Shown here in pieces: positions 12,667-47,935 of a stretch of 64,000 nucleotides of DNA. The stretch spans positions 852,136 through 916,135 of the forward strand of contig BOLA01000001.1 in the NCBI GenBank assembly GCA_016861265.1, given 5' to 3'. The stretch comes from Patescibacteria group bacterium. GTDB taxonomy: Bacteria; Patescibacteriota; Dojkabacteria; J137. The notes under the pieces are model-generated. The model saw nothing but the letters and a program-made list of their open reading frames with translations, was not told where the DNA came from and made no database searches. Both the position numbers and the translations under genes were made by a program. Each line of letters begins with the position of its first letter. Positions within the stretch are counted from its first letter, which is position 1.

Positions 12667-13962
12667 ATGTTATTATTTTATATGTTTAATGAAGATGATC
12701 TTCTAAAAGGTGAAAAACCATTCAAAATCGGTGATTACTTATTACCAGGAGTTTTAGATTTAGCAGGGCAGCTAGAATTCTTGCGTACAGTTATGCCTAA
12801 CCCCGACTTAATTTACTATGGAGAATTTCCCCCCGAGTTTGAGTCTCCACTACTACCCTCCTCAATTTTAAATGAATACAGCAATGCTGCAGCAAAGTTT
12901 AGAGTCTTAATGACACTAATGGAAACTGCCGAATCAGAAAACCTATACGATTCAATAAACCAAGCCGTAGATACATATAGATCTATGTACCCTGCAGATT
13001 ATCAGGGCCTTGAAGTTACTTTCCTGGACGGGAGACTTATTGTGAGTATTTATAACCAAGATAACTTGAGTCTTCAGGTAATTATTGAAAAATCCGACAA
13101 ATCATGGCATGTCACTAAGTCTATGATTCATTTTAAACTCTACGAATATAACTTTGAGATTAGGGACAATTTACAAGGTAACGAGGTTGTAATTATTTAT
13201 CCTCAAAACGATAATCTCGGCATTATTCCTCATGTTCGAGATTATTCAGCAATTGCCTCCATAAGAATTCCTAACGACGAAGTAGAATGGTATATAAATA
13301 TTTTTAATGTAATAGAACTCAGAGACGATAAAGATACTGTCTTATATGATTATTTTACTATAGCCCCAGGCAGGAAAAGAGTCATTGATATTCATGAAGG
13401 CAATAATGTATACGAACAAATAATAATTTATCCTAGTGACCACGGCATAAGCATTCAAAAAATAGAAAGGACGAAACAAGTTCTGCCTGATGGGCAAATA
13501 GAAACATTGAGTCGATATTTAAAAGTTGTGGAAGCGGAAATTGATATAAATGCATTAAAAGTACGAGCATTAATTTCTAGAAATCAAAATCTTGAATCTC
13601 GTGTAAGTTTAGTAAAAAAACAAGGTTCTGAACTTCCAAAATCTACAAGAGTAGAATATTTTAAAAGAAAAGGAATTAAATCCTTAGATGTCAGATTTAG
13701 AGATGACATGTCCATTAGCTCAATTCTTGTCGATGAAAAGTTATATTTAGATGGTGAATTTGATTTATTTTTATCTACCGAAGGATATTATATTTTTGTA
13801 CTTGGCGATAACTCAAGGCGAATACCGGTAAGTTTTAGTACTGATTACACAATAGCTGTTCCAGAAGAAAAAATTGGGCCAGTATTTGATGTTGTGGATA
13901 ATAACATGATATTACCATTCTCTAGTGCATCGGGATTGGTAAGAGTAGTCAGTTTGAATTAA
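12667..13962 (+). CDS. hypothetical protein
   Basis: An intact 431-aa ORF with host-like composition. Confidence 0.4.
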   Translation: MLLFYMFNEDDLLKGEKPFKIGDYLLPGVLDLAGQLEFLRTVMPNPDLIYYGEFPPEFESPLLPSSILNEYSNAAAKFRVLMTLMETAESENLYDSINQAVDTYRSMYPADYQGLEVTFLDGRLIVSIYNQDNLSLQVIIEKSDKSWHVTKSMIHFKLYEYNFEIRDNLQGNEVVIIYPQNDNLGIIPHVRDYSAIASIRIPNDEVEWYINIFNVIELRDDKDTVLYDYFTIAPGRKRVIDIHEGNNVYEQIIIYPSDHGISIQKIERTKQVLPDGQIETLSRYLKVVEAEIDINALKVRALISRNQNLESRVSLVKKQGSELPKSTRVEYFKRKGIKSLDVRFRDDMSISSILVDEKLYLDGEFDLFLSTEGYYIFVLGDNSRRIPVSFSTDYTIAVPEEKIGPVFDVVDNNMILPFSSASGLVRVVSLN

Positions 13963-14040: not shown

Positions 14041-14047
14041 ACAAAAG

Positions 14048-14119
14048 TGAAGTGACCGGGACTCGAACCCGGAACCAACTGCTTAAAAGGCAGCTGCTCT
14101 ACCATTGAGCTATCACTCC
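14048..14119 (-). tRNA. tRNA-Lys (anticodon UUU)
   Basis: It has a manually folded cloverleaf: acceptor GGAGTGA/TCACTTC, D-arm GCTC-AATGGTA-GAGC, anticodon arm GCTGC-CTTTTAA-GCAGT and T-arm CCGGG-TTCGAGT-CCCGG. CCA is not encoded. Confidence 0.75.
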
Positions 14120-14474
14120 ATACACTAAGGCTCGTGAATTATATCTAATCCCCAGGCTCTTGTCTACCGAGTTTGAATTCAGATACCAGAAGTAGGTAAT
14201 AACTTTAGCGATTATTACTCAAAATTTCCGTTATTAATACGCCTGCCGATAAGATTTTACAACTTTATGACTTCTTCTGCAAAATTAAAGAAATCGCCCA
14301 AAGCCTTTTAGAGCCTAATCAATCGCAATTGATGCTTTAATGTCTAAAAGTATATATAAGTTTCTGGCCAAATTATCACAAAGCTTAGTCGCTAATTACA
14401 TGAAAATGTAATGATACTAAATTCCCCCTGATCATAGTAATTTAACCTTCGGATAGAAAAGGCAAAATATCCTC

Positions 14475-14840
14475 CTAGCTATCAAAACTACCGGATGATG
14501 CATATATCTCATATTCGCTAGTAGTATCAACTGGGAAATCTAGTATTTTAGTCTTAGATATAATCCTCCCTATGCCTCGTCTGTTTATAACGACTTGTGC
14601 GACATTATCTTTCACTCCTAAAAATTCTCCATTAATTACTTCTGGTAATACGTGAGGAGGTTTATGAATTATTGCAACCTTATACCCTGTCTCTATTTCC
14701 TTAAAACTGGAGTACCTTATAAATCCATCTGATTCAATCTTCTCACGAAGTTGCCTAGTATGGGATTGAATGTGAACCTTGTCATAACCATAACCACTGC
14801 CCAAATCACCACTTTCTAGTCCGTACCAATTGAAGTCCAT
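14475..14840 (-). CDS. small protein ending in a Ser-rich tail (SSGSFDS). It is the last gene of the kinase/nucleotidyltransferase operon and may be an RRE or substrate-like protein.
   Basis: A 121-aa ORF lying 14 nt downstream of the kinase gene on the same strand. Confidence 0.4.
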   Translation of the reverse strand: MDFNWYGLESGDLGSGYGYDKVHIQSHTRQLREKIESDGFIRYSSFKEIETGYKVAIIHKPPHVLPEVINGEFLGVKDNVAQVVINRRGIGRIISKTKILDFPVDTTSEYEIYASSGSFDS

Positions 14841-14853
14841 ATGATTACATTTA

Positions 14854-16014
14854 TTAAAGTAATTTGATTTTTTGTATTAAGTAATTAAAATTCTTTCTGT
14901 AGTCAAAGCCAGATGATACTGAATAACTTTTTGTATTTTTAAATATTTGTATTAGTTCTTTTCTTCTTTCTTCTGTTTTTAAATTGGTCATTTTTGTTAA
15001 ACTCTTGAAAAGCATAACCGTAGGTGCAAGGCTTACTTCTAAAAATCTATCAACAATTTCAGTGAGGCTATTTTTCTTAATTGATATGCCAGACTTATTT
15101 TTATCTAGAGAAACCTTTAAAACATGGGTTATTTGATCGGTTGAAAGATTACCTTTACTTTTGGATAGAGCATCAAAATATATCGACATTTGTTCTTTCT
15201 TCCCAAGTTCGAATAGTTCTTTTTTCTTCATATGTGCCATATCTAAAAAAGCATTATTGATAATGCCAGCGTTAACAAAGAAATCTTTAAATTCTAAGTA
15301 TGTACCGACTCTGATATTGAAATAGTTTCTTATATTATAATTAAGTATCGCCCCATATCTCGTAACATATGTTGTTTCCTCTGTAATGATTTGCCAGCCA
15401 CTTGCTAAAAACAACAAAGCAAAAGTTGTTTTCCCACCTAAAGATGAATTACTGAGAAGAATATTGTTTTTCCCATCACTTACTAACCCACCATGCACTG
15501 CGTATAAGTCACCGTATAATAAGTACGGTGTAAGCAATAAAATATTAATCATAGTCAATGCTTTTTTCTCATTTTTAACTGCCATTAAGCATTCGCTAGA
15601 TTCCGTATTATAAATATAATAAAAATGATCGTAGCATTTGATAATGTAAAATTTATTATCAACTGTGCATTTTGAGCCAGAGGTATTGTGTGTTGCTAAG
15701 TTAAATTTCTTTACTCTCGGATTAGTAGACCATTCCGCGTGTAGAAATATCAACTCAATCTTTTGGAAAATATCTTCGTTTTCTAAGATAAAAGCTTTGA
15801 TGTTATTACGATTATTTTTCTGTGAAGTGCTTAATAGTGTATTGAAAGAATGACTAAATTCTATTAAGTGATCAGAACATAAGTCATAATTACAAGTTAT
15901 AGTTGTTATTAGATTATCACTAATCAAACTATGTACAGTATGGCTTGATTCATTTGTTATAGCTTTTAAACTATCAATAAAAATTTCGTTTACTTTTGCG
16001 GTTAAATCATTCAT
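14854..16014 (-). CDS. HPr-kinase-C-terminal-domain-like P-loop serine kinase
   Basis: YAVHGGLVSDGKNNILLSNSSLGGKTTFALLFLASGWQIITEETTYV matches the HprK_C pattern (HG.lv...G.llLitG.SG.GKSt.AL.L...G..lvaDD). Confidence 0.55.
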   Translation of the reverse strand: MNDLTAKVNEIFIDSLKAITNESSHTVHSLISDNLITTITCNYDLCSDHLIEFSHSFNTLLSTSQKNNRNNIKAFILENEDIFQKIELIFLHAEWSTNPRVKKFNLATHNTSGSKCTVDNKFYIIKCYDHFYYIYNTESSECLMAVKNEKKALTMINILLLTPYLLYGDLYAVHGGLVSDGKNNILLSNSSLGGKTTFALLFLASGWQIITEETTYVTRYGAILNYNIRNYFNIRVGTYLEFKDFFVNAGIINNAFLDMAHMKKKELFELGKKEQMSIYFDALSKSKGNLSTDQITHVLKVSLDKNKSGISIKKNSLTEIVDRFLEVSLAPTVMLFKSLTKMTNLKTEERRKELIQIFKNTKSYSVSSGFDYRKNFNYLIQKIKLL

Positions 16015-16028
16015 AGAAAATCCAGTGT

Positions 16029-17051
16029 TTACTTATAATTTTTTATAATATCGTATGAAAATAGTCTATCTATCAAACTTCCAGTATCTTCCATCTTTTT
16101 TTCAGGCTTATACTGGTCAAAAATTACTGTCATAATATTATCGCTTATATAACTATATTTCTGATAAAGTAAATTAACATTGTTTAATGACAGTATCTCT
16201 GGAAAAATCTCAGCGGTATAATTTAGTGTAAAAAACACATGTTTATCAAAACCGTACTTTAGAGAGTCTTCGAATATTTGGTCGATGTTAATTTGTTCGA
16301 AATATTTTTGGATAAAAGTATATATATCAACAAATTTATATAAATCCAATACCTTTCTTTTTTTTACAAGGTCTAATAAGGCTGAATCTTTGTAAAGGTG
16401 GCTACACAGATGGATAAATAGGTGTTCTTCTTTTAACGAATAGATTGAAAAGTTGTCATCACTAGAAATGAGAACTCGTTCCTCCAAAAAATAATCTACC
16501 ACTCCATTAGAGGTGTTTGGCGTCCAGTCTAAAGAAAAATTAACATCGATATCAATAGTTTTAATAGTTATTTCATTAAGTATTTTAACAAAAGGAGCCA
16601 TTTCACCTCTAGTATTTATAGATTGCGTAAGTGTGTGTTGGTCAAATTCGTTAACAATATCTTTACTATAATCATACTTGCCTTGCAAAAAACCTAAATC
16701 ATACAAAATCCCTTTTACTTTTTGAATTGATTTTTTTGATACTAATATATCTATATCATTAAAAGCTCTAGTACCTGAGGGGTAAATAGTACTTGATAAG
16801 ACTGATCCTTTTAAGAATGTATGTTTTACATTTGCTTCCGATAACTTTGAAGAAATGCTTTTAATATATTCTTTTTGTAAATCTGTTCTTATGCTTTGTG
16901 CCTGATGGATCATATAAATTGTGAAAAAAACAGGAAAATCTAGTTTTCTTACATCGATGGAGTTTACAACTTGATATGCAAGGCCAGCAACTCGGTGGTA
17001 GCATAAGTATCCTAAAACTTCGATCCAATTTAAAGTTTTATCACTCAGCAC
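16029..17051 (-). CDS. uncharacterised nucleotidyltransferase (PF14907-like, MNT/pol-beta superfamily)
   Basis: GSVLSSTIYPSGTRAFNDIDILV is a G-S...DxD nucleotidyltransferase motif. The ORF is about 340 aa, typical for this family, and appears to start with GTG. Confidence 0.5.
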   Translation of the reverse strand: MLSDKTLNWIEVLGYLCYHRVAGLAYQVVNSIDVRKLDFPVFFTIYMIHQAQSIRTDLQKEYIKSISSKLSEANVKHTFLKGSVLSSTIYPSGTRAFNDIDILVSKKSIQKVKGILYDLGFLQGKYDYSKDIVNEFDQHTLTQSINTRGEMAPFVKILNEITIKTIDIDVNFSLDWTPNTSNGVVDYFLEERVLISSDDNFSIYSLKEEHLFIHLCSHLYKDSALLDLVKKRKVLDLYKFVDIYTFIQKYFEQINIDQIFEDSLKYGFDKHVFFTLNYTAEIFPEILSLNNVNLLYQKYSYISDNIMTVIFDQYKPEKKMEDTGSLIDRLFSYDIIKNYK

Positions 17052-17208
17052 TTCAATAAGTCTTTCATTTTTTTTATTGCCTAATTTTACTATCTCTAGT
17101 ACAGCATTATGTTCTTTTTTTATAGTGGTTTCTTTATTAAATATATAACAGGAATGATAATATGAAGACGAGGTAAAGTCAAATCTGTCCAGTAAATCAG
17201 TTGATTAG

Positions 17209-18144
17209 ATGCAATTAGTATGGTATAAATCTTTTTTAGAATTAAAAAGTTTTATGAATATGCTTGATAACAAATATCATTCTTCAAAAATCTGTTTAGG
17301 AACATGGCGAATGGGAGGAGACGTTAAGCCAAATCCTAATAATGATGATGAAAAAGACATTGATGCCATTAAATATGCAATCAGTAAAGGTATTTCACAT
17401 ATAGATACCTCAGAAAGCTATGCAGATGGCAAATCTGAGTTGCTCGTTGGAGAAGCAATAAAAAAGATATCTAGGGACAAATATTTTTTAGCTACTAAAG
17501 TTCGTGAATATAATCTTTCTTATGACAGTGTTATTAGCTCCTGTGAAAAATCTCTACAAAGACTTAATGTTCCAAGCATTGACTTATATTACATCCATAA
17601 ACAAAATCCACTCATTCCCATTGAAGAAACAACTAGAGCCTTAAATAAGCTCATTGATACTGGACTTATTAAACATATAGGGCTGAGTAATGTCGGAATT
17701 GCTACGATAAAAAAATATTCTCAACTACTAAACAGTCCAATTTATGCAGTTCAAAATCAATATAATCTCGTTTGTCGTGAGTCTCAAAGAAAAGGTGTTA
17801 CAGATTATTGTAAACTAAGTGGAATTCAATTCATTGCGTGGAGACCTATTCTACTTTCATATCCGGGAGTTGTAGATCCCTATTATCATACTGGCACGTA
17901 CAGATTATTGGATGAAATGGCTAAAAAATATAACAAAACAAATACACAAATTGTGGCCAAGTGGCTTGTACAACAAGATGGAGTTTCTATTGTTTTTAAA
18001 AGTTCTAACAAAGAACATATTGATGAAATTTTAGATATTGAAAATTTTAAGCTTTCCGATAGTGATTGGGAAATATTAGATAAAGATTTTCCAGTGCAAA
18101 AAGATTTAGGGTGTACTGCTGACGTTTATTTTGAGTTATCGTAA
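17209..18144 (+). CDS. aldo/keto reductase family oxidoreductase
   Basis: It carries GTWRMGG, IDTSESYADGKSE and LLDEMAKKY, consistent with an AKR (alpha/beta)8 barrel. The true start is probably the internal ATG near 17254 (MNMLDNK). Confidence 0.7.
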   Translation: MQLVWYKSFLELKSFMNMLDNKYHSSKICLGTWRMGGDVKPNPNNDDEKDIDAIKYAISKGISHIDTSESYADGKSELLVGEAIKKISRDKYFLATKVREYNLSYDSVISSCEKSLQRLNVPSIDLYYIHKQNPLIPIEETTRALNKLIDTGLIKHIGLSNVGIATIKKYSQLLNSPIYAVQNQYNLVCRESQRKGVTDYCKLSGIQFIAWRPILLSYPGVVDPYYHTGTYRLLDEMAKKYNKTNTQIVAKWLVQQDGVSIVFKSSNKEHIDEILDIENFKLSDSDWEILDKDFPVQKDLGCTADVYFELS

Positions 18145-18224
18145 CAAATCGTTATCCTTATATCGCAATTTAGTTTGCTTAATGAGATAATACAATTTAT
18201 TTTACCAAGTCTAGAAAATGATCC

Positions 18225-19373
18225 ATGGTTAATATTATACAAAGAGATACAAAAATCAAAGAACCATATGAATCCCTTTACAAATTGAATATTGGCCTAT
18301 CTATTGACGAGTTTGAAGCAGAAGAGGCAATGTTGGAGATTTTGAAGGAAGAAAATTTACAAAAAAGAGTAAGTCTTTTAACAATGTTACTAAATGGGGT
18401 TATGATTAAGGGACCTTCTGTTTCTGAAGTAAAAGGATTAATAAACGCCTCATTATCGTTGGATGGTATATTAAAAACACCAAGACCAAAAATTATTTTG
18501 CCAAATAAAGAACTCTTAGTTGGTGTAGCGTCAAGTGGTAAAAAGGGGTTTAAAACAATAAATATTACTACACCTGCTAGTTTTGTTGCGGCTGCTTGTG
18601 GTGCATTTACTGCAAAGGCATGTTCACATTCAACGTCTTCCAAAACAGGTTCCTCTGATCTTTTAGAAATAATTGGTATCAATATAAATATCCCTTTCAA
18701 AGAAAAAGTCACAATATTACAAGAAAAGAGAATTGCTTTTTTTTCAATTGAAGACACAACTCCAAATTTTGCTAAAGTTTATGAAGGCGTATTTTATGCT
18801 CCGCACGCCATGAGTTTTGCCCTAGCTGGACTTAGCTTTCCGGTCAAAATTGATGCTCTTGTATATGGTTTGTCACATCCCAATGTTAAATTGTCGTTAG
18901 AGGTGTATAAAGAATATGGTTTTAAAAATGTTTTAGTCTACTCATCTAGTGAAGACGGTGTACATTATTTAGATGAATTACCAATCTCTGGTTACGCTAA
19001 TATCATAGGTATGAAAAATGGCAAGGTTGTCCGGAAAATATCAGCTAATATAAAAGATACATTTCCTTTCAATCCAAGTAATAGTTTAAAAGAATTAGCC
19101 GAAAAGGAAACGAAAATTGATAATGTCAAGGCTTCTCTAAGAGTACTAAATGGTATAGGCTTAGAAAGCCATACTGATGCTATATGCATTAACGCAGCAC
19201 CTATTATTCTTTTAGCGGGAAAGGTTAAGTCGTTAAAAGAAGGATATTTATTGGCAAAGAAAAATATTCAGGAAGGAAAAGTATTTAAATTGTTTTTAGA
19301 AGTGGTTGAATTGTATGGGGGAGATTTAAATCAAATAACGAATCTATTATCAGAATCTGATCCTTTAATTTGA
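18225..19373 (+). CDS. TrpD-fold protein (anthranilate phosphoribosyltransferase / glycosyltransferase family 3-like) with degenerate catalytic motifs. It is possibly YbiB-like.
   Basis: TINITTPASFVAAACGAFTAKACSHSTSSKTGSSDLLE aligns with TrpD [38 protein letters not shown]. GTGGD is replaced by ASSGKKG and KHGN by KACSHS. Confidence 0.5.
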   Translation: MVNIIQRDTKIKEPYESLYKLNIGLSIDEFEAEEAMLEILKEENLQKRVSLLTMLLNGVMIKGPSVSEVKGLINASLSLDGILKTPRPKIILPNKELLVGVASSGKKGFKTINITTPASFVAAACGAFTAKACSHSTSSKTGSSDLLEIIGININIPFKEKVTILQEKRIAFFSIEDTTPNFAKVYEGVFYAPHAMSFALAGLSFPVKIDALVYGLSHPNVKLSLEVYKEYGFKNVLVYSSSEDGVHYLDELPISGYANIIGMKNGKVVRKISANIKDTFPFNPSNSLKELAEKETKIDNVKASLRVLNGIGLESHTDAICINAAPIILLAGKVKSLKEGYLLAKKNIQEGKVFKLFLEVVELYGGDLNQITNLLSESDPLI

Positions 19374-19465
19374 AAGCAAGGTATCAGATATTTAAAAAGA
19401 ATTATGCTCTATATGCCTGTCTGTGCTATAATCCATTAATATTTATGTTTGTTAGATTATAAAAT

Positions 19466-20578
19466 ATGAATTCAAATTTTGAGGATCCGAATAAAGAAAA
19501 AGAGGAAAGACAGACTATTATAGAAAGGCCTATTGCTGAACAGCCGCTCGCATCTTTTGAGCAACAGGAGAGTATCCAATGGAAAGTTGAAATCTTTACA
19601 GGTATTAGACCAACTGGGGATTTGACGGTGGCTAATTTTGTAGGGGCAGTAGCACCTATTCTTGAATTGCAAAATAATGGCAAACATCCTATGGTTTTTG
19701 TAGCTGATCTTCATGCAATGACAGATAAAGAACCTAAGATAGCAATGCAATTCACCAATGATGTTGTTGCAGATTATATAGCTTTAGGACTCAATCCAGA
19801 GCAAACGGATATATTTGTACAGTCTACAATTGCTCAACAGGTTGGACAACTCACATTATATTTAATGAGACATATTTCAATTGCTGAGCTTATTAGAGTA
19901 CCTACATTGAAAGATAAACTGAAAGATGGTCAAAGAGAAGAAAATGCAAGTGCTTTACTAGCAACTTACCCTGTCATGATGGCTGCAGATATTTTAATAC
20001 AGAGAGCAAAAGAAGTTCCTGTTGGAGAAGATCAAGTTCCACATATTGAAGTGACAAGATTACTTGCTAAACGCTTTAACGCACAATATGGTCAAACCTT
20101 GTATGTACCCAAAGTTCAACAAGTAGAAACATTAAGAATACGATCTTTGAAAGGTGAAGGTAAGATGAGTAAAACAAATCCCAATGGTGCTATTTTTTTA
20201 ACTGATAGCCTTGATGAGGTTGCAAAAAAAATTAAAAAGGCTGAAACAGCATTTGCAGGAGAAATGAGTCCTACTCTAGCAAGTCATGTTACTCTAGCAA
20301 AAAATCTAACCTATAAACCAGAAGATAAAGTTCTAATAGATGAGATAATAGAAGCACATATGCAGGGGCAAACTGTAATGGGTGATTTTAAAAAGATATT
20401 TACAGAAATTACATTAAGGTTTATAGAAAATTTCCAACAAAGAAGGGCACAAGTAATGTCCGATCCTACATATATTCCATCTATTCTAGAATACGGAGCT
20501 AAAAAGGCAAGAGAAAATGCGGACGAAACATTAGGTTCCGTTTACGAAGCTATGACTAGTGGCGCAAAGGAGGGATAA
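19466..20578 (+). CDS. trpS: tryptophanyl-tRNA synthetase (class I; TIGN-type HIGH variant) with an N-terminal extension of about 40 aa
   Basis: FTGIRPTGDLTVANFVGA resembles the Bacillus-type SGIQPSG..TIGNYIGA, with the KMSKT (KMSKS) motif downstream, and PVGEDQVPHIEVTRLLAKRFN. Confidence 0.7.
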   Translation: MNSNFEDPNKEKEERQTIIERPIAEQPLASFEQQESIQWKVEIFTGIRPTGDLTVANFVGAVAPILELQNNGKHPMVFVADLHAMTDKEPKIAMQFTNDVVADYIALGLNPEQTDIFVQSTIAQQVGQLTLYLMRHISIAELIRVPTLKDKLKDGQREENASALLATYPVMMAADILIQRAKEVPVGEDQVPHIEVTRLLAKRFNAQYGQTLYVPKVQQVETLRIRSLKGEGKMSKTNPNGAIFLTDSLDEVAKKIKKAETAFAGEMSPTLASHVTLAKNLTYKPEDKVLIDEIIEAHMQGQTVMGDFKKIFTEITLRFIENFQQRRAQVMSDPTYIPSILEYGAKKARENADETLGSVYEAMTSGAKEG

Positions 20579-20628: not shown

Positions 20629-21726
20629 TTATGATTTGATCTGGTGTGCAAATTTTTGTGCTTGTTTACTAATCAGGTCTGCATCTTCAAAATAATTAAT
20701 CCCGATTGCACTTTTAACTCTCTGTGTCGTTTGGGAAGCCACATTACGTGCTTCTCGGCTGCCTTCAAGCAATATTTTATAAACTTGTGGAATGTTTTTT
20801 TGATATTCCTCTCTCCTAGTACGAAGTGGCATTAATTCTTCTTGAATAACATCATTTAAGAAACTTTTTATTTTCGTATCGCCTAGACCTCCTCTTCTGT
20901 AATGATCTTTCAGCTCATCTAAATTATTATAACCAGCTAGGTATCTTTGTAAATGATTAGGTTTACAAAAAGCATCTAAATAAGTAAAAACTGGATTATT
21001 TTCAACAGTGCCGGGATCTTCTACTTTTAAATGATTGGGATCTGTAAACATCCCCATAATTTTTTTCTTAATTTCCTCTGGCGAGTCTGCAAGGTAAATA
21101 CCATTATTTAAAGACTTGCTCATTTTCGCTTTCCCATCTAAGCCTGGTAATCTGCTACAAATATCATTCTCTGGTAATGATGCATTTGGTTCTACCAAAG
21201 TTTCTCCATAGATAGAATTAAAACTTCTAACAATTTCTCGTGTTTGTTCTATCATCGGTAGTTGATCGTCACCTACTGGAACAATATTAGCGTCAAATGC
21301 TGTAATGTCAGCAGCTTGGCTCACTGGATATGTCAAGAATCCAGCAGGAATACTTTTATTAAAACCTCTTAACTTTATTTCTTCCTTTACAGTAGGATTC
21401 CTTTGTAATCTTGCTACTGTAACTAAATTCAGAAAATAATATGTTAACTCACATAGCTCAGGAATCTGGGACTGAATAAAGATAGTAGATTTATTGGGGT
21501 CAATACCACATGCTAAATAATCTAATGCTACCTCTATTACATTTTGTCTTACTTTTTCAACATTGTCTGCGTTATCAGAAAGTGCCTGAGCATCCGCGAT
21601 CATAATAAAGATACCATCAAACTTTCCAGAGTTTTGCAATTCAACTCTTTTCTTTAATGATCCAACATAGTGACCTAAATGCAGTTTTCCTGTGGGCCTG
21701 TCCCCAGTTAGAATAATATTTTTCAT
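20629..21726 (-). CDS. trpS: tryptophanyl-tRNA synthetase (canonical HLGH-type)
   Basis: It carries TGDRPTGKLHLGHYVGSL (HIGH), KMSKSLNN and VPVGDDQLPMIEQTREI, and is 365 aa. Confidence 0.8.
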   Translation of the reverse strand: MKNIILTGDRPTGKLHLGHYVGSLKKRVELQNSGKFDGIFIMIADAQALSDNADNVEKVRQNVIEVALDYLACGIDPNKSTIFIQSQIPELCELTYYFLNLVTVARLQRNPTVKEEIKLRGFNKSIPAGFLTYPVSQAADITAFDANIVPVGDDQLPMIEQTREIVRSFNSIYGETLVEPNASLPENDICSRLPGLDGKAKMSKSLNNGIYLADSPEEIKKKIMGMFTDPNHLKVEDPGTVENNPVFTYLDAFCKPNHLQRYLAGYNNLDELKDHYRRGGLGDTKIKSFLNDVIQEELMPLRTRREEYQKNIPQVYKILLEGSREARNVASQTTQRVKSAIGINYFEDADLISKQAQKFAHQIKS

Positions 21727-21738
21727 AAAGAAACAGTC

Positions 21739-22935
21739 TTAATTCTTATATAAAAATAGTTCGTTGTATGTATCAATATCTTTTTCATATTTCGATTCTT
21801 CCCAAAGGGTTTTAATTTCAATAAAAAACTTCAAATATTCATACTTTATTTTAGTCCAATCTTCGTAATTTTGTTCTAGATTTTCAAAAGCACTTTTGGC
21901 TTCTATTAACTTGTCGGGACTCCAATTAGAAGCAAGTATCATCATTTGTAAAATAACCTCCTCATTTCTCTTCCCACAGTCAATAATTTTCCTATGTAAT
22001 TCCTCTTCGCTATCTCCAACATTAATAGAAGAGTCTGGAATGCTTTTTGACATTTTAACATAAGGGAAAAGACCACCAATAAGCTTTCCATACAATGCAC
22101 CGATTTCAGCATCTTGATGAACCAAGCTATCCACGCCTCCACTCTTCACTTTCATCCTATTAAGTGCAATTCTTGCTAAATACGGATGGTGATGTTCTTC
22201 CAATCCTACCGGCACTATTACACCTCGTTTTTTGTCACGAACTATCGGTAGGATAATATCTGTCATTGTATATGTCCTACTCACCATTTTTGAGAAATCG
22301 TTCCCAAGCAATTGTAATCTTTTATACATATCGTTAGTTACTTCACGATTTTCGAGCAAATCTTCAGTACTTAAAACACTAGAAACAAGTGAAAACACTC
22401 GGGAATGATCATGAAAGTTATGTGTTCTAATTTCACCGTTTTTTTCATTAAATCCCAATTTCTTAATAAAAGATATAAACTGATAGGAATTTCTTATTAG
22501 CTCATTTAATGGCTTTTGTCTTGAATTTAATGCACTTAATTCAGAAATGATTATATGAGTATAAATACCTGTTTGTTTTTGAAGTTCAAGTACTCTAAAA
22601 ATAGAAGAAAGTGTACCGGCCGTTGGGGAATTAGTAGGACCAAATCCTGTTACAATAGCTAACTCGGTCGTAGGAATTTTATTAAAGATTTCTAAATTAT
22701 CGTAACACAAATATTTAGAATTTAATTCATTGTGCTTCCCATAGCCATGTAATTGAATATTATTAGGAAACTTAACATACTTAAAATCTTCGATTATTTT
22801 GCCAAGTTTGTTATTGGAATATTCCAAATCCTTTAATGCATGCTTAAGATCATTTGCAACTTCTTCAATCGATTTATTTTGTTTCTCTGCTATTTCTTTT
22901 AATTCATCATTTGACAAATTTAAATTGGTTTTCAT
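21739..22935 (-). CDS. divergent TrpRS/TyrRS-family class I aminoacyl-tRNA-synthetase-like paralog with a degenerate HIGH motif
   Basis: KMSKSIPDSSINVGD and VPVGLEEHHHPYLARIA align to TrpRS. The HIGH position reads TGFGPTNSPTAGTL, with no His. A coiled N-terminal extension of about 100 aa is present. Confidence 0.5.
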   Translation of the reverse strand: MKTNLNLSNDELKEIAEKQNKSIEEVANDLKHALKDLEYSNNKLGKIIEDFKYVKFPNNIQLHGYGKHNELNSKYLCYDNLEIFNKIPTTELAIVTGFGPTNSPTAGTLSSIFRVLELQKQTGIYTHIIISELSALNSRQKPLNELIRNSYQFISFIKKLGFNEKNGEIRTHNFHDHSRVFSLVSSVLSTEDLLENREVTNDMYKRLQLLGNDFSKMVSRTYTMTDIILPIVRDKKRGVIVPVGLEEHHHPYLARIALNRMKVKSGGVDSLVHQDAEIGALYGKLIGGLFPYVKMSKSIPDSSINVGDSEEELHRKIIDCGKRNEEVILQMMILASNWSPDKLIEAKSAFENLEQNYEDWTKIKYEYLKFFIEIKTLWEESKYEKDIDTYNELFLYKN

Positions 22936-24477: not shown

Positions 24478-24876
24478 ATGTCGCTAAACACACCAAAGAT
24501 CATTAAGAACTTTTTGAATGCTAATGAGAAAACAGAGAATAACTTTATCACTGCACTACTGTTAGATAAATCACTATTATTAAAAGAAAAAGAATTGTTG
24601 CTTTTTATCTTTCATTTAGCAAATCGTTCTGGTGATTTAAAAGTAAGTACCAAACAATTGGCTACATTTACTCTTACAGATTTAGAAAAACTCAGGATTG
24701 CCTACAGTGCTAATGCGAGTATAGCTTTTCAAAAACTTCACAGATTAGAAATTATTAATTGGAATAAAACTGAACATACCTTTGAAATCAATAACGACTG
24801 GATAGATGAAATATTAACTAGAGATCAAAACACTAGACTAGAGTTCTTTTACAAGTTATTACTCAAACAAAACTAA
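24478..24876 (+). CDS. hypothetical protein
   Basis: A 132-aa ORF whose stop overlaps the start of the next gene. Confidence 0.35.
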   Translation: MSLNTPKIIKNFLNANEKTENNFITALLLDKSLLLKEKELLLFIFHLANRSGDLKVSTKQLATFTLTDLEKLRIAYSANASIAFQKLHRLEIINWNKTEHTFEINNDWIDEILTRDQNTRLEFFYKLLLKQN

Positions 24877-25811
24877 TGTCTGAAAAGGTTGTTTTAAAAA
24901 TCTCAAAAGAGTTAGATAGAGGTAAAGCCTTTGTGCAAATTTTATCTAACCTAATTCGTAGTCCTGAAATTTCAGATTCAGAATTTAGAACATTCTTAGC
25001 TTTACTTGATTTTAAATGGAATGGGCAATCTAAAATCTTTCCGTCATTAACAACTCTTGAAAAAATACGTCATAAAAGCAGAAAAAGAATTGTTGCTCAT
25101 TTAAAAGGTTTAAAACAGATAGGTTTAATCTCTTATCAGAAATCCTCTGAAAGAAATAGTAATGAATATTTTTTTAACAAGATTGAATTTGAAGCAATAG
25201 ATAAAACGCCACTAGTAGACAAAAGTAAACTAGTGTACAAAACTACACCATCGCTAGGGTCGAAAAGTACACTACAGATAGTGGCGAAAACTACACCCGA
25301 AAGATACGAATATAAGAATACTAAATTTAATAAGACGTTAGCTGAAAACGACTTAAAAAAAATTGCTGATAAAAAGTCACAACGAAGTGACTTTGGAAGT
25401 TTCAAAGTTGATCCCAAAACAGAAGATTTTACTAAATACAATCCAGAAGCACTTGAATATGCAAAGTTACTGGACAATCTTGAAGATATTAAGTTTTATC
25501 AAAACTTGCTTGATGAAAAACAATTTACTCACGAAGAATTGCAATCTGCTTTCTGGAAAACATGTAACGAAATAAATACAGATAAAAAAGATGGCAAAAT
25601 TTTCTGGAAAAAGCCAGGAGCTTTATTTAATAAAAACTTGAAAGCAATTTTAGAACGAAAGAAACAAATTAAGAACGGCTTAGATAAATTAACAGACAGT
25701 AAAACAATTCCTAAAGAAAAAACAGAAAACGAAAAGTTGTCAGAATTTAATAAAAAACGAAATCATGCACTTAATTTATCTCAGAAATTACTAAATAGAG
25801 AAGGAATATAA
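24876..25811 (+). CDS. putative HTH replication-initiator-like protein (tentative)
   Basis: The N-terminal winged-helix-like segment (RTFLALLDFKWNGQSKIFPSLTTLEKIRHKSRKRIVAHLKGLKQIGLI) is followed by a charged region. It lies immediately upstream of the origin-like repeats. Confidence 0.35.
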   Translation: MSEKVVLKISKELDRGKAFVQILSNLIRSPEISDSEFRTFLALLDFKWNGQSKIFPSLTTLEKIRHKSRKRIVAHLKGLKQIGLISYQKSSERNSNEYFFNKIEFEAIDKTPLVDKSKLVYKTTPSLGSKSTLQIVAKTTPERYEYKNTKFNKTLAENDLKKIADKKSQRSDFGSFKVDPKTEDFTKYNPEALEYAKLLDNLEDIKFYQNLLDEKQFTHEELQSAFWKTCNEINTDKKDGKIFWKKPGALFNKNLKAILERKKQIKNGLDKLTDSKTIPKEKTENEKLSEFNKKRNHALNLSQKLLNREGI

Positions 25812-25904
25812 CTGATGAACGAAGTGATGAAACTATGGTGAAACTGCTAATCCGAAAAAATGACTATTTTACGATCTTTAAAAACCTACCAAAGCGAGAG
25901 CCAC

Positions 25905-26165
25905 TAAACCTTACTAACTCCGAACGGGAGTGATTGGGTGCCCTCCTATCGGAGCCCACCCAATCACTCCCTCGACAAAGTTACACGTTGTGTTGTTTGT
26001 CGTCTGAGTTAGTAAGGTTTAGTAGGGTAGGTAGTAGGTAGTTAGTAATAGTAAGTTAGGTAGGATAGATAGAGAAGAATAAAGAAGAGAGATTGAGAAG
26101 ATAGAGATTTTAGGTAGGTTAGTTTTTAAGTATTTGTTGAGATTTATTATTTTTTAATTTTTTTA
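25905..26165. repeat. nested inverted repeats plus C-free purine-rich repeat tract (candidate ori, oriT or att region)
   Basis: The 18-bp inverted repeat ACTAAACCTTACTAACTC...GAGTTAGTAAGGTTTAGT encloses a perfect 15-bp hairpin GGGAGTGATTGGGTG-(16 nt)-CACCCAATCACTCCC (about 25926..25971) and the 7-bp CGACAAA...TTTGTCG. About 150 nt follow with almost no C on the + strand, containing TAGGTAG-like and GAGA/AAGA repeats. Confidence 0.6.
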
Positions 26166-26170
26166 TATAA

Positions 26171-27148
26171 ATGATTGGTTCAAATATTTTAAAAAGTTCT
26201 GATGTGGAAATTTTGTATACAGTGAGTATTTTTAAGTTTATTCCGCTTAAAGTTTTGGCTGATATTTTGATTGCTAAGAATATTTATAGTTTTTATCAAG
26301 GAGTTGCCAGAAGTATTACAAGACTCGAAAAACAGGGGTTGTTAAGAACTAAATACTATGCAAATCATTCAAAAATCATATTTTTATCAAAGACAGGTGC
26401 AGGAGTTTTATCAGTGAATAAAGGTATTCCACTAGAAAACATTAACTGTCCTGACCGAATTACTAATGTAAATTTCTTTGCCATTGAACATACAATTGAA
26501 GTGTCTAAATTGTTTTACATATTTTCTACTGAGTGCGAAAGATATGGATTTAAGCTAGTAGAATTCCAAGGAGATGCTTATCAAAGATACATATATTCTT
26601 TTAAGGAATGGATTAACAATGACCAAAAGAAAATAACTAAATATGTAATTCCAGATGCTTTTGTAAGAATTGATGTTGGAGATGAAAAGATTTATGAATT
26701 TTATGTTGAATATGATAAAGGTTCTGAATATTCAAAAGATATTGCAGAAAAATATCAAAAGTATTTTGAATACTATTCCCTTTCAGAAAAGTACAAGCTT
26801 AATAACGATGATAAGTTTCCATCTGTTTTATTCATAACGACAACTAAGAAAAGAATATTGAACCTTATTCCTGATATGCCTAAAAAGGATGGGAATAGAT
26901 ATGAGCTATACGGAAACAGAGGCTTAAGGAATGTAGTATTTCAAGGAATTGAAAACGCAAAGGGAGATACGAATCACGATAGTTACAGAATTCACAAGTT
27001 TTTGAAAGATGAAAACAAGTTTCTGTTCATTGAGTACGAAAGCCTATTAAAGAATAAGTTTGAAGCTACTTGGTTAAACTTTATTCAACAGCCAATTTCC
27101 TTACATTACTTTTTAACAAATCCATTTATTGAACCTAAATCTTATTGA
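26171..27148 (+). CDS. replication-relaxation-family-like protein (tentative)
   Basis: It has an N-terminal wHTH-like region (ILYTVSIFKFIPLKVLADIL...ITRLEKQGLL), as in the PF13814-type plasmid proteins. Confidence 0.35.
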   Translation: MIGSNILKSSDVEILYTVSIFKFIPLKVLADILIAKNIYSFYQGVARSITRLEKQGLLRTKYYANHSKIIFLSKTGAGVLSVNKGIPLENINCPDRITNVNFFAIEHTIEVSKLFYIFSTECERYGFKLVEFQGDAYQRYIYSFKEWINNDQKKITKYVIPDAFVRIDVGDEKIYEFYVEYDKGSEYSKDIAEKYQKYFEYYSLSEKYKLNNDDKFPSVLFITTTKKRILNLIPDMPKKDGNRYELYGNRGLRNVVFQGIENAKGDTNHDSYRIHKFLKDENKFLFIEYESLLKNKFEATWLNFIQQPISLHYFLTNPFIEPKSY

Positions 27149-27407
27149 TGAAAATCTAAAGTTTATAAATCAATTTGATATTGATTCTAAAGAAATTTCT
27201 GCTGAAAGAGCCAGAGAAATCTTGGGTTCAAAGGCTGACGGCTTGAATGATGATGAATTACAGGTTGTTATAAATATGGTGATGACTATGGCTGAAATAG
27301 CTGTCGGAGATTTTTTTAATAAAAAAGTACCAGAAGATGAAAAGAAGTTATATAATTTAACTGCAAATCAATCAAAAAGGGTAAAACGAAAGAAAACTAG
27401 ACTTTAG
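27129..27407 (+). CDS. small hypothetical protein
   Basis: A 92-aa ORF overlapping the upstream stop. Confidence 0.3.
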   Translation: MNLNLIDENLKFINQFDIDSKEISAERAREILGSKADGLNDDELQVVINMVMTMAEIAVGDFFNKKVPEDEKKLYNLTANQSKRVKRKKTRL

Positions 27408-27509
27408 TCTGTTATCTTTACAGATAAGGGGCTACTTGGAACAGTCTTTACCCAAAGATTGATTTGCACCAGGTAGTCCCTTTTCTGTTTAGTTTTTACT
27501 ATTTAAAAT

Positions 27510-29084
27510 ATGAACAAACCAAAAGCAGTCATTTACACTAGAGTTTCATCAGATAGACAGATTGATAATACAAGTCTTGCCGATCAATTAAAAAAAGGTA
27601 AAGAGTATTGTGAGCGAAGAGGCTTAGAATTCGTTACAGAATTTAGAGAAGAAGGAGAATCAGCAGAACTAGCAGATAGAACAATTTTGAAAGAAGCATT
27701 GAATTATTGTGGCTTAAAGAAAAATGATATTACATATTTTCTAGTATTTAAGTTCGATAGATTCTCTCGTTCTGTTGAAAACCACCACCTAATTAAAGCT
27801 ATATTAAGCCGTAGTGGAGTTAAATTGATCTCAATGACAGAAGAGACACCTGACACTCCGGCAGGAAGATTAACAGAAAATATGCTTGCAACAATAGCCC
27901 AGTTTGATAACGAAGTCCGAACTGAAAGATGTATTAATGGGATTAAAGCAAAATTAAGACAAGGTATTTGGGTTTATGATTCTCCACTTGGATATATGAA
28001 AGATACAAACTTTAAAGGTAGTGGTGCTAAACCAGATATTCCAGATCCAGCAAAGTTTGAAATTGTAAAAGAAGGATGGAAAATGATGCTAACTGGAAGA
28101 TATAGGTCAAAAGATGTTTTAGAGTTTTTTCATAAAAAGGGATTAAGAAATAGGTATGGGAATAAATTAATTGCACAATCTGTTTCAAAGATTTTTTACA
28201 ATAAGTTCTATGCAGGATTATTGTTTGTTGATAGTTTTGGAATTGAAGAAAAAGGACAGCACCAACCAATGATTACGCTAGATGAATTCTATGCAGTTCA
28301 AGCAATTTTGGCTAAATACAATAATGGAAATCAAGTTAAGCATTTAGGTTACAATCCAGAATTTCCACTGAATAAAACAATTAAGTGTACTTGTTGTGGG
28401 AAATTTATGACTGGTGCTTGGTCTAAACAAAAAGGAGTATTTGGATATTACGCGTGCAGAAGACCCGAATGTAAGGAAAGAGATAAAATCAAGAAAGCTG
28501 ATGCAGAGACTTCATTTATTGAGCTATTGGAGAGAATTACTCCATCTCAAGAATTAGTAGATTTATACAAGGAAGCAGTTACCAAAGTATATTTGAAAAA
28601 ACTTCGAGAGAAAGAAGATATACAAAGGCATATTAAAAGTGAACTAAATGAGCTTGAGGTTAGATTATCTAAACTTGAAGAGCTTGTTGAAACAGATGTC
28701 TATTCTGTTGAAAAGTTTAAAGAAAAGTCTAAACCACTTGTACATGAGATTGCAGTTAAGAAAGTATCACTTTCTGAAACAAACATTGATTTATATGATG
28801 CGGAGGAATGTGTTAATTACTCCGTAAATTTTTTACAACTTTTACCTAAATATTGGATATCTCTGTCTGTAAAGGCAAAACATAGATTGCATGAGGTACT
28901 TTTCCCCGAAGGTCTAATTCTCGAAAATGGAAGAGTTACAACCAAGGCATTAGCCCAGTTCTATAATGATATTGAAGCAATTTCAGATGGTAATGTCCCA
29001 TCTGGTACACCCGGAGGGAGTCGAACCCCCAACCTTCGGTTCCGAAGACCGCTGCTCTATCCATTGAGCTACGGGTGCGCATAA
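27510..29084 (+). CDS. large serine recombinase/integrase
   Basis: It has an N-terminal resolvase domain with the catalytic Ser (AVIYTRVSSDRQ), a recombinase domain and a zinc ribbon (CTCCGKF...YYACRRPEC), followed by a coiled coil. The 3' end reads through tRNA-Arg. Confidence 0.8.
   Translation: MNKPKAVIYTRVSSDRQIDNTSLADQLKKGKEYCERRGLEFVTEFREEGESAELADRTILKEALNYCGLKKNDITYFLVFKFDRFSRSVENHHLIKAILSRSGVKLISMTEETPDTPAGRLTENMLATIAQFDNEVRTERCINGIKAKLRQGIWVYDSPLGYMKDTNFKGSGAKPDIPDPAKFEIVKEGWKMMLTGRYRSKDVLEFFHKKGLRNRYGNKLIAQSVSKIFYNKFYAGLLFVDSFGIEEKGQHQPMITLDEFYAVQAILAKYNNGNQVKHLGYNPEFPLNKTIKCTCCGKFMTGAWSKQKGVFGYYACRRPECKERDKIKKADAETSFIELLERITPSQELVDLYKEAVTKVYLKKLREKEDIQRHIKSELNELEVRLSKLEELVETDVYSVEKFKEKSKPLVHEIAVKKVSLSETNIDLYDAEECVNYSVNFLQLLPKYWISLSVKAKHRLHEVLFPEGLILENGRVTTKALAQFYNDIEAISDGNVPSGTPGGSRTPNLRFRRPLLYPLSYGCA
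29004..29078 (-). tRNA. tRNA-Arg (anticodon UCG) with encoded CCA
   Basis: It folds manually as acceptor GCACCCG/CGGGTGT, U8A9, D-arm GCTC-AATGGATA-GAGC, anticodon arm GCGGT-CTTCGGA-ACCGA and T-arm GGGGG-TTCGACT-CCCTC, then A-CCA. Confidence 0.75.
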
Positions 29085-47800: not shown

Positions 47801-47935
47801 GCGAAGGCATTTAAACAATTTAATAGAAACGATAGAGTTACTGTTAGATATTCAGATGGTGAAGTTCAAAAGGATGTTAAGTTCAAGAAGGTTGAAAACG
47901 ATTTATTAACCGGTAAGGCAGTTATTGTAGATTAA
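44867..47935 (+). CDS. secA: preprotein translocase ATPase SecA
   Basis: It has the DEAD-like motor (ELYTGEGKTMTFQLP, IIDEADSILIDEARTPLIISG), the preprotein cross-linking and helical scaffold domains, and a long C-terminal tail; 1022 aa. Confidence 0.9.
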   Translation: MANKISSIFDLNSRQIKSTDKAFQKIRSLKDDVEKMSYEDMQKRIKEMKAELTKMTDEIPFEKKLSLRKIDRTKPLPKEEIAIQNKLNEFLPEVFAFMDEVFFRKVGFRYHDVQLRAGIILAQGQRLVELYTGEGKTMTFQLPLVLYSLAGRGAHLVTVNDYLSRRDGEYAGHIASALGLTVGIVSSTASYKFVFDEQLKFVKGEGAAELREKMPKIQISAMDGINLVECVKRESYNCDITYGTNNEYGFDYLRDNMSWDLNNISQRELYFCIIDEADSILIDEARTPLIISGIPTDANVSKYKLFAEAVNDLVENEHYEVDHKTRRVMLTEEGIQMVENKLGVDNLWKDYSMAYHIENALKAQTMFNRDEHYLVKGGEVLIVDEFTGRILKGRRYSEGLHQAIEAKEGVEVRQESKTYATITFQNFFRLYKVLCGGSGTVMTEAEEFYKIYGLETVQVPTNRPVVRVDSPDLIYKNQNAKYKAVVAEIKERHSKGQPVLVGTTSVDKSEIISNLLDIERIPHEVLNAKYHEQEAKIIEKAGRKGAVTVATNMAGRGADIVIGGGSRGDEAYEEIKALGGLHVIGTERHESRRIDNQLRGRTGRQGEPGSSRFYVALDDQLMRILGGDMMGSLMARVGMDDDTPIELKLISKQIESAQKRIEGMNFDSRKQIVDYDDVMNQHREIFYSRRRNFLQSAEEASGKFIEQGNLVVVSSLDKQHQEQYNSKIESAQENLIKIIKALVDLEVSNFTKTQLSNNKKWNKEVVSNIVKNFTEIIPVSILAKVLNIQTSKVTEFLSEELLKDKSDKSEKYLVELADKVIDEKQKEFGKEFYYVAKAITLQTMDNIWVDHLELMKDIRDGIGLQAYAQKDPLVEYKNEAYIVFESFIQNINKDVVKQILSIQRLTPEMVNAQPTLANAVTNEDQITDVLTEDREFIADQGNDNKVLASSLVGRLESERKQNAVSGGLGQENNTRKINAKAFKQFNRNDRVTVRYSDGEVQKDVKFKKVENDLLTGKAVIVD

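Follow-up and report, generated by a model that had tools for sequence, protein, structure and literature searches.

Pairs of HprK-like kinases and NTP transferases are established tailoring partners in clusters for peptides that are ribosomally synthesised and then modified post-translationally (RiPPs). In the case of pseudomycoidin, the kinase phosphorylates a hydroxyl, and an enzyme of the nucleotidyltransferase (NTase) fold then adds a hexose to the phosphate; in the clusters for linear polyphosphorylated peptides (LPPs), the NTP transferase was inactive in the heterologous host, and the authors suspected that a partner supplying a rare substrate was missing. In phosphonate small-molecule clusters, too, PF14907 adjoins a P-loop kinase. 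Here we consider a pair of this kind, genes A and B, on a 64,000-nucleotide stretch of DNA (hereinafter, the window: positions 852,136 to 916,135 of contig BOLA01000001.1) from a Patescibacteria group bacterium of the Dojkabacteria lineage. An earlier note on this DNA grouped the two genes with a small gene C, next to a tRNA-Lys gene, and suggested that they could form a stand-alone module for the phosphorylation and nucleotidylation of a peptide or protein; the RiPP precedent that it invoked is borne out by the literature. What that note missed is the context of the pair, namely, genes for a TrpD-like protein, an aldo-keto reductase, and two proteins of the tryptophanyl-tRNA synthetase (TrpRS) type, and this context is decisive. 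A and B probably belong to a small-molecule module linked to tryptophan and TrpRS rather than to a peptide-tailoring cassette. More specifically, we suggest, with a probability of roughly 0.4, that they are enzymes of a small-molecule pathway that centres on tryptophan and TrpRS and spreads by horizontal transfer, in which, by analogy with described systems, A would cap the phosphate added by B, and the TrpRS pair would serve as a loader and a spare.

Two pathways in which aminoacyl-tRNA synthetases (aaRS) are encoded next to biosynthetic enzymes provide the frame for this suggestion. In ascamycin biosynthesis, an extra canonical alanyl-tRNA synthetase (AlaRS), AcmD, which is the more resistant copy, charges tRNA, and a divergent AlaRS-like protein, AcmF, transfers the aminoacyl group to the nucleoside scaffold, yielding an aaRS inhibitor. 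Indolmycin is made by transamination of tryptophan, C-methylation, ketone reduction and ATP-dependent coupling, with a TrpRS resistance gene inside the cluster; the respective proteins include Ind0 (TrpRS, resistance), Ind1 (C-methyltransferase), Ind2 (reductase) and Ind3 (ATP-dependent ligase). Thus, both the tailoring by a kinase with a PF14907 partner and the presence of aaRS paralogs in antimetabolite clusters are known already. The six-gene module described below, the B family, and the clade of the diverged TrpRS-like protein div398 are not; full-text searches returned no description of these gene families in combination or of clusters of TrpRS paralogs in Patescibacteria.

Homologs of B were sampled from a protein collection and from species-representative genomes, and all loci were mapped by blastp, which resulted in a map of 21 distinct loci. 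A is located directly upstream of B in every one of the 21, and the distance between them, measured in 20 loci, is -23 to +29 nt, so that the survey of genomic context proposed in the earlier note reveals strict co-localisation of the two genes. The unit in which they travel, however, is not the three-gene one envisaged there: C is an orphan of restricted distribution, and A and B are embedded in a module of six genes, namely, those for the TrpD-like phosphoribosyltransferase (PRTase) paralog, the aldo-keto reductase, A, B, one full-length TrpRS, and div398. All six are present in 17/21 loci, and in 17 of the 18 distinct loci of ~9 kb or more; two further contigs are too short to tell, and the incomplete loci are L012, which is devoid of the reductase, and L032, which carries a deletion. 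The complete loci include L007 (61% GC) and one in the circular Bacilli genome OZ007038.1. Some hosts contain optional phosphatase genes, of the HAD type where the TrpD-like gene adjoins the reductase and of the Cof type where the two synthetase genes meet. The module proteins are 42-85% identical to those of the window, and their divergence is correlated among the genes (Spearman 0.75-0.93) despite host GC contents that range from 23 to 61%, which indicates that the module has been inherited and transferred as a unit among compositionally diverse genomes.

Although strongly conserved (50-85% identity across its hosts), the module is extremely rare, with 17 loci among 185,579 species representatives. 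Its hosts are labelled as Paceibacteria, Saccharibacteria, bacterium HR35, Candidatus Lithacetigena (WS2), metagenome-assembled genomes (1-1.5 Mb) of gut Bacilli, Tenericutes and Erysipelotrichaceae, and bins labelled DPANN. Several further labels, such as Flavobacteriales and Ignavibacteriales, seem to stem from mistakes in binning or naming, and, since the archaeal contigs are short, the presence of the module in archaea is unproven. Within the window, no att-like repeats bound the module, its GC content (0.319) is only slightly lower than that of the rest of the window (0.349), and B has no match among plasmid and phage sequences; the possibility that the module is cargo of a tRNA-bounded island was rejected on these grounds.

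The assignment of gene A to PF14907 (NTP_transf_5), made in the earlier note, is strong: the Pfam profile matches with E=5.9e-31 and 108.4 bits (cutoff 31.2) over positions 3-248 of 249, and the pol-beta-type motif G[GS]...D-x-D can be read in the translation as LKGSVLSS...FNDIDILV. PADLOC returned for gene A only a weak AbiEii match (14 bits, E=0.008). For gene B, the proposed check against Pfam Hpr_kinase_C (PF07475) failed: there were no matches at all in Pfam or NCBIfam even at E<=1, the NCBIfam models of HprK-related kinases A and B (TIGR04352 and TIGR04355) and PADLOC were likewise without a match, and, among PDB sequences, the B-family profile found KaiC alone, through a marginal P-loop match (E=0.3). 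The predicted model of B, which is confident, nevertheless matches only the folds of phosphoenolpyruvate carboxykinase (PEPCK) and HprK/P and has an intact P-loop. A bridge of profiles leads to the same superfamily. The B profile aligns with the profile of a distant tail of the family over 329 columns (hhalign 99.8%, E=9e-29), and the latter matches solved HprK/P chains (1ko7, 4e-8; 1jb1 and 2qmh, ~6e-7; 3tqf, 2.5e-4); 18 of the 21 tail members match NCBIfam HprK_rel_A, with a best E-value of 8e-16, which is still sub-threshold (cutoff 200 bits). The residues that are invariant in 40 B sequences, namely, H174-G175-G176, G194-K195-T196-T197 and E212-E213, as well as R229 and R235, may correspond to the HprK layout of H-G, a Walker A motif GxSGxGK[ST], and an acidic pair; however, the sequence of the loop in B is SSLGGKTT, and its acidic pair consists of E-E instead of D-D.

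The description of B as an HprK-like P-loop kinase therefore holds at the superfamily level, where both the fold and the profile bridge support it, but not at the level of any curated HprK family. Identity to HprK/P and PEPCK is only 10-17%, B has N- and C-terminal regions of its own, and a context of the phosphotransferase system (PTS) or its HPr protein is lacking. B is best viewed as a P-loop protein of the PEPCK/HprK superfamily and a predicted kinase, representing a family that is not covered by Pfam. The 133 homologs, which are 43-99% identical to B over the full length, are all unannotated, and an exhaustive search of 1.84 billion protein representatives yielded only 56 representatives of the family.

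Orthologs of the reductase with 58-81% identity are found in every locus with a complete module and are missing from L012 and from the variant locus L026. The TrpD-like protein aligns with anthranilate PRTase over its full length (4yi7, E=7e-21) and retains the segment SSKxGSxD, but scores 127 bits with the TIGR01245 trpD model, below the cutoff of 199, and its motifs are altered: GTGGDG of the phosphoribosyl pyrophosphate (PRPP) loop is changed to ASSGKKG, and KHGN to KACS. In a second subtype of ~450 aa, which occurs in other loci and is 28% identical, the same GSGKK change is seen and KHGN is lost, so that the general pattern relative to TrpD is GTGGD to [AG]S[SG]GKK, with loss of KHGN in both subtypes. 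As judged from these motifs, the TrpD-like protein is a separate paralog whose substrate site is altered. Further genes of trp biosynthesis are not found near it in the window.

The module includes one TrpRS in every complete locus, and this is one of two canonical types. The WRS370 type accompanies the module in loci resembling those of the candidate phyla radiation (L005-L007, L009-L012), where it is encoded beside div398 and shows 46-78% identity; the WRS365 type is found in the Bacilli loci and L002 (65-76% identity) and in the variant L026 (69%). Since these copies are 46-78% identical across lineages, they travel with the module. The window has both canonical genes and div398 side by side, whereas other hosts have one type or the other. 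The div398 protein, a tRNA-synt_1b protein 392-413 aa in length across the loci, is the most conserved of the module proteins (59-85% identity). Its structural model (mean pLDDT confidence 86) retrieves, as top Foldseek hits, archaeal and eukaryotic TrpRS (3a04, E=2.7e-12), with a TM-score of ~0.6 and 12-17% identity. Two elements are invariant, the KMSKS loop and, from the AADI motif of TrpRS, the Asp-Ile pair; in B. stearothermophilus TrpRS, this Asp contacts the indole NH. Other signature elements of div398 are altered, with HIGH changed to TAGT and GxDQ to GLEE, and the C-terminal ~45 residues are missing.

The pairing of a canonical with a diverged aaRS of the same specificity, along with scaffold-building enzymes, is the feature that the module shares with the ascamycin AcmD/AcmF system, and the comparison has obvious limits: the enzymes are of class Ic and the TrpRS type in one case and class II AlaRS in the other, the module has no sulfamate genes, it is known here from sequence, and div398 retains KMSKS and the Trp-pocket residues whereas AcmF has lost most of the activation residues. 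With indolmycin, the likeness consists in a TrpRS gene inside a pathway for a Trp-derived compound. This second likeness extends to the distant relatives of B. In the three distant contexts with ~17 kb or more of contig (L026, L028 and L031), two class Ic TrpRS-type genes are accompanied by small-molecule tailoring enzymes in 3/3. L026 encodes MetK, a B relative (33% identity), a TrpD-like protein (53%), a radical SAM/SPASM protein, div398 (55%), two Cof phosphatases and a WRS365-type TrpRS (69%), with both the NTase and the reductase absent. L028 combines a SAM_HAT enzyme, two TrpRS-like genes, a protein labelled Beta_methylindole_red_C, a B12-radical SAM enzyme and a B relative (27%) with a GNAT protein, a PPDK_N/PEP-utiliser enzyme, a 554-aa PF14907 protein and a PanK-like kinase. 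L031, with 68% GC, encodes a PPDK_N enzyme, an aminotransferase, two TrpRS-like genes, a reductase-like protein labelled Beta_methylindole_red_C, a SAM_HAT enzyme, a Methyltransf_2 enzyme, an HprK-related protein and an ABC exporter; the label Beta_methylindole_red_C (PF27054) in both loci is a precomputed annotation that was not reproduced. The gene set of L031 follows the logic of the indolmycin pathway, and the indolmycin-like clusters of L028 and L031 may be uncharacterised pathways for Trp-derived antibiotics. The module of the window differs from indolmycin, L028 and L031 alike in that it contains none of those tailoring enzymes.

The pathway can be envisaged as follows. The TrpD-like enzyme, the reductase and the phosphatases would build and tailor a ribosyl or nucleoside-like scaffold, a hydroxyl of which would be phosphorylated by B; A would then cap this phosphate with a nucleotidyl or glycosyl group, as its pseudomycoidin relative does. 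The canonical TrpRS would make Trp-tRNA and double as a spare, possibly insensitive, copy, and div398 would install the tryptophanyl group after the AcmD/AcmF model. The product could be a tryptophanyl-nucleotide-like antimetabolite or a signal, and C would be a lineage-specific add-on. The idea of a spare TrpRS in this lineage is supported by the presence of two TrpRS genes side by side, by the survival of one of them in the deleted locus L032, and by L007, where an ABC exporter is encoded directly downstream of the module in the same orientation.

In the window's own lineage, the comparison with related loci bears a clear signature of long-term purifying selection on the module, but the module may be eroding. 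In L008, two genes are interrupted by nonsense codons, the reductase at codon 205 (GGA to TGA) and div398 at codon 17 (GAG to TAG); L008 is a short-read assembly, and these two single-base changes are possibly assembly errors. In L032, a 2.56-kb deletion that corresponds to window positions 17455..20014 (junction at L032 1548..1565) removes the TrpD-like gene, part of the reductase gene and the 5' part of WRS370 but spares WRS365, of which the 5' 136 nt are beyond the contig end. Because this deletion destroys one canonical TrpRS gene and spares the other, one of the two copies is dispensable. The nucleotide identity between the window and L008 is a mosaic, 98-99% in B, C, the TrpD-like gene and the reductase, 97% in WRS370, and 89-94% in A, WRS365 and div398, which points to recombination inside the module among related populations.

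A number of observations weigh against the pathway proposed here. All its chemical steps are drawn by analogy; the TrpD-like protein has lost the canonical PRPP and anthranilate motifs, which makes its reaction uncertain; and div398, being less degenerate than AcmF, could be an active synthetase that serves another purpose. The self-resistance interpretation of the spare TrpRS draws on the lineage of the window alone, the exporter of L007 is not a conserved part of the module, and the nonsense codons of L008, the deletion in L032 and the truncation of C (see below) are the signs of the possible erosion. In addition, reduced-genome symbionts are not known to produce antibiotics.

With these reservations, one can tentatively go a step further and propose that ultra-small, host-dependent microbes (Patescibacteria, DPANN-labelled bins and gut Bacilli of 1-1.5 Mb) have come to share, through horizontal transfer, a compact pathway for a tryptophanyl-nucleotide-like TrpRS inhibitor or a Trp-derived signalling nucleotide. 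It would represent a new class of antimetabolite pathways, which would employ a spare TrpRS, a kinase of the HprK/PEPCK fold acting on a small molecule, and a diverged archaeal-type TrpRS acting as an aminoacyl transferase; this version is doubtful, but its implications are considerable. If a TrpRS-directed compound is made, its scaffold would be new among antimetabolites and would bring along a hypothesis on the target; the known roles of HprK-type kinases and PF14907 enzymes would extend from the tailoring of peptides to the chemistry of small molecules; and there would be a testable clue to the interaction of episymbionts with their hosts, be it a chemical weapon or a signal. The module is found mostly in organisms that are thought to be nearly devoid of secondary metabolism. 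The B family, which lacks Pfam coverage, and the TrpRS-like clade of div398 are two families that deserve models of their own.

A different view of the same genes is that the module acts on tRNA-Trp or Trp-tRNA in a housekeeping or quality-control capacity, with the kinase and the NTase modifying or repairing tRNA, the TrpD-like protein binding nucleic acid in the manner of TrpD2/YbiB, and div398 binding tRNA-Trp. The presence of TrpRS-type proteins in every context fits this view, as does the replacement of the acidic PRPP loop of the TrpD-like protein by Lys-Lys and the tRNA-Trp gene that adjoins the module in a single Bacilli genome. There are toxins of the NTase fold that nucleotidylate tRNA, and the weak AbiEii match of gene A (E=0.008) could be read in this light. 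However, no tRNA gene is conserved with the module; TrpD2/YbiB entries are missing among the 21 PDB matches of the TrpD-like protein (0/21), the significant ones all being anthranilate PRTases; the reductase and the sugar-phosphate phosphatases suit small-molecule chemistry better; the distant relatives reside in clusters with clear secondary-metabolite content; and the rarity of the family (17 of ~185,000 species) is not what one would expect of a housekeeping function. On balance, a role in tRNA-Trp maintenance is unlikely.

A decidedly smaller chance is to be given to the interpretation closest to that of the earlier note, under which A and B are a stand-alone tailoring pair, with B phosphorylating a Ser of a peptide or protein, for example, the terminal Ser of C, and A nucleotidylating or glycosylating the phosphate. 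The precedents are the pairs of the paeninodin/pseudomycoidin lasso peptides and of the LPPs, with which the module shares adjacent genes for a kinase and an NTase-fold enzyme, A being a clear PF14907 member and B a remote HprK relative, distantly related to HprK-related kinases A and B; moreover, C is a real gene that starts 13 nt after B. The differences are more extensive: the NTase gene precedes that of the kinase, the pair is accompanied by TrpRS-type proteins, the TrpD-like protein and the reductase, B does not match any HprK model directly, and a precursor, a RiPP recognition element (RRE), a cyclase, a leader peptidase and an MsbA-type exporter are all lacking. The earlier note had already remarked on the absence of a cyclase and a precursor at the locus, and neither is present or conserved; the search for PqqD/RRE is likewise empty. 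Specifically, neither the Pfam-annotated gene tables of the loci nor the scanned window proteins contain a PqqD/RRE, cyclase, B protease, leader/SpI peptidase or MsbA exporter. Since none of these components was found, the RiPP-type interpretation is left without any defining feature except for the adjacency of the kinase and the NTase, and it does not explain the invariant TrpRS pair, the TrpD-like protein and the reductase. A precursor peptide among the small open reading frames (ORFs) was considered and rejected: outside the six large genes, there is no conserved small ORF among the 227 segments between window positions 13900 and 23400 (0/227).

The substrate role of C fares no better, as C is limited to three close relatives and its terminal Ser results from a nonsense change that is found only in the window. 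Among 5.8 billion proteins, C has only two clusters, C itself and a 74%-identical copy in L032; it is missing from every mapped locus except for the window, L008 and L032, and has no match in Pfam, PDB or PADLOC. The L008 and L032 versions comprise 132 aa, with the C-terminus ...SSGSFD[S/T]WE[D/N]ILPFLSEG, 11 residues beyond the end of C in the window, where a single G-to-A change (TGG to TAG) relative to both relatives introduces the stop and the following 33 nt are identical to those of L008. The TAG codon is as read in the window sequence itself. The residue that is terminal in the window, Ser, is Thr in L032. Judging from this alignment, the Ser terminus of C, to which the earlier note drew attention, is a truncation specific to the window, and C is a lineage-specific accessory orphan outside the conserved module; C as the substrate of the kinase was accordingly rejected, being neither conserved nor Ser-terminated outside the window.

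The tRNA-Lys adjacency has the same narrow scope: it is real in the window, where the tRNA gene lies 355 nt downstream of C on the same strand, but is not conserved beyond the three close relatives (window, L008 and L032). The scan of 25 loci revealed no tRNA gene conserved with the module, the other loci having either no tRNA or an unrelated one, with tRNA-Lys, tRNA-Trp, tRNA-Pro and tRNA-Gly genes scattered among them. A pyrrolysine-like cassette was rejected as well because no dedicated tRNA travels with the synthetase in these 25 loci. In one Bacilli genome, a tRNA-Trp(CCA) gene is located directly beside the TrpD-like gene (L001 3933..4006; 5927..6000 in L024, which shares the contig); no other tRNA found has a thematic tie to the module. 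On the tRNA-Lys side, L008 and L032 have an extra 187-aa ORF without a Pfam match between C and tRNA-Lys (L008 10871..11434; L032 4904..5467), whereas the window has 355 nt of non-coding DNA in its place (14120..14474). Beside tRNA-Lys, at 12667..13962 on the plus strand, there is an orphan ORF of 431 aa that has no match in Pfam, NCBIfam or PADLOC and is 24% identical to the syntenic L008 gene; the flanking DNA is 83-95% identical to that of L008, and the ORF is hypervariable or replaced.

The set of non-synthetase enzymes, namely, a phosphorylase/PRTase, phosphatase, reductase, kinase and NTase, also resembles the logic of CDP-ribitol or nucleoside diphosphate (NDP)-sugar synthesis. The module could, on this account, provide a nucleotide-activated sugar or alditol phosphate for a cell-surface polymer, with the TrpRS linkage being incidental. 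This is improbable inasmuch as the gene tables of the loci show no conserved association of the module with a glycosyltransferase, a polymerase, a flippase or any membrane protein, and the two TrpRS-type genes stay linked even in L026, which has neither the NTase nor the reductase, so that the linkage is not fortuitous. That the module is an anti-phage defence or toxin-antitoxin system at a tRNA-proximal hotspot is least probable of all: the variable tRNA-Lys side (with the 187-aa ORF present or absent and the 431-aa ORF hypervariable), the weak AbiEii-like match of gene A and the patchy distribution shaped by horizontal transfer would suit such a system, but PADLOC finds nothing significant for A, B and C, B is not on plasmids or phages, the tRNA position is not conserved, att-like repeats are lacking, and the content consists of metabolic enzymes and working TrpRS genes.

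Table 1. Genes of the module and adjoining features in the window
Feature	Position	Strand	Description
Gene A	16029..17051	minus	340 aa; annotated start GTG 17051
Gene B	14854..16014	minus	386 aa
Gene C	14475..14840	minus	121 aa
tRNA-Lys(UUU)	14047..14119	minus	ARAGORN and Rfam; neighbour only, outside the module
Aldo-keto reductase	17209..18144	plus	PF00248, E=3e-62; divergent from gene A; module member
TrpD-family (Glycos_transf_3) paralog	18225..19373	plus	PF00591; module member
WRS370, full-length bacterial-type TrpRS	19466..20578	plus	TIGR00233 trpS, 247.9 bits (cutoff 176.75)
WRS365, second full-length TrpRS	20629..21726	minus	TIGR00233, 247.9 bits; HLGH and KMSKS present
div398, TrpRS-like, archaeal/eukaryal type	21739..22935	minus	PF00579, only 32 bits

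The three minus-strand ORFs of the earlier note are present as it described them (Table 1), and so are the motifs quoted there, GS...DIDILV in A, HGG...SSLGGKTTFALL...ITEETTYV in B and SSGSFDS at the end of C. The uniform gene spacing of 14 nt given in that note applies to A and B, but B and C are separated by 13 nt. Between the window and L032, the ratio of nonsynonymous to synonymous substitution rates (dN/dS) amounts to 0.13 in gene A, 0.125 in gene B and 0.20 in gene C (dS, 0.16 to 0.74), the overall range for gene A being 0.07-0.13; these low values relative to L032 indicate that A, B and C are real genes. The annotated start of gene A is likely to be misplaced. The homologs (MKKEH/YNAVLEIVK...) begin with a Met that is aligned with an ATA in the same frame at 17123..17121, the 24 residues between it and the annotated GTG at 17051 are conserved, and the ATA is found at this position in L008 and L032 as well. 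Thus, translation starts at a non-ATG codon or else the start codon has recently been lost; the true start is probably the non-ATG codon ATA at 17123, 24 codons upstream, so that the gene would extend over 16029..17123. The RNA scan of the window detected two tRNAs only and no regulatory RNA, T-box or riboswitch, and promoter-like and terminator-like sites in the window are not more frequent than expected by chance.

Beyond div398, positions 24876..29084 of the window encode proteins with HTH_36 and, at 26171..27148, Replic_Relax domains, followed at 27510..29084 by a large serine recombinase, the 3' end of which overlaps tRNA-Arg(TCG) at 29003..29078 on the opposite strand. This region has the appearance of a small element that integrated at tRNA-Arg, adjacent to the module; no att-like repeats link the two in the window. 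Further downstream, a giant plus-strand ORF of 2473 aa (36885..44306) is followed by one of 1022 aa (44867..47935).

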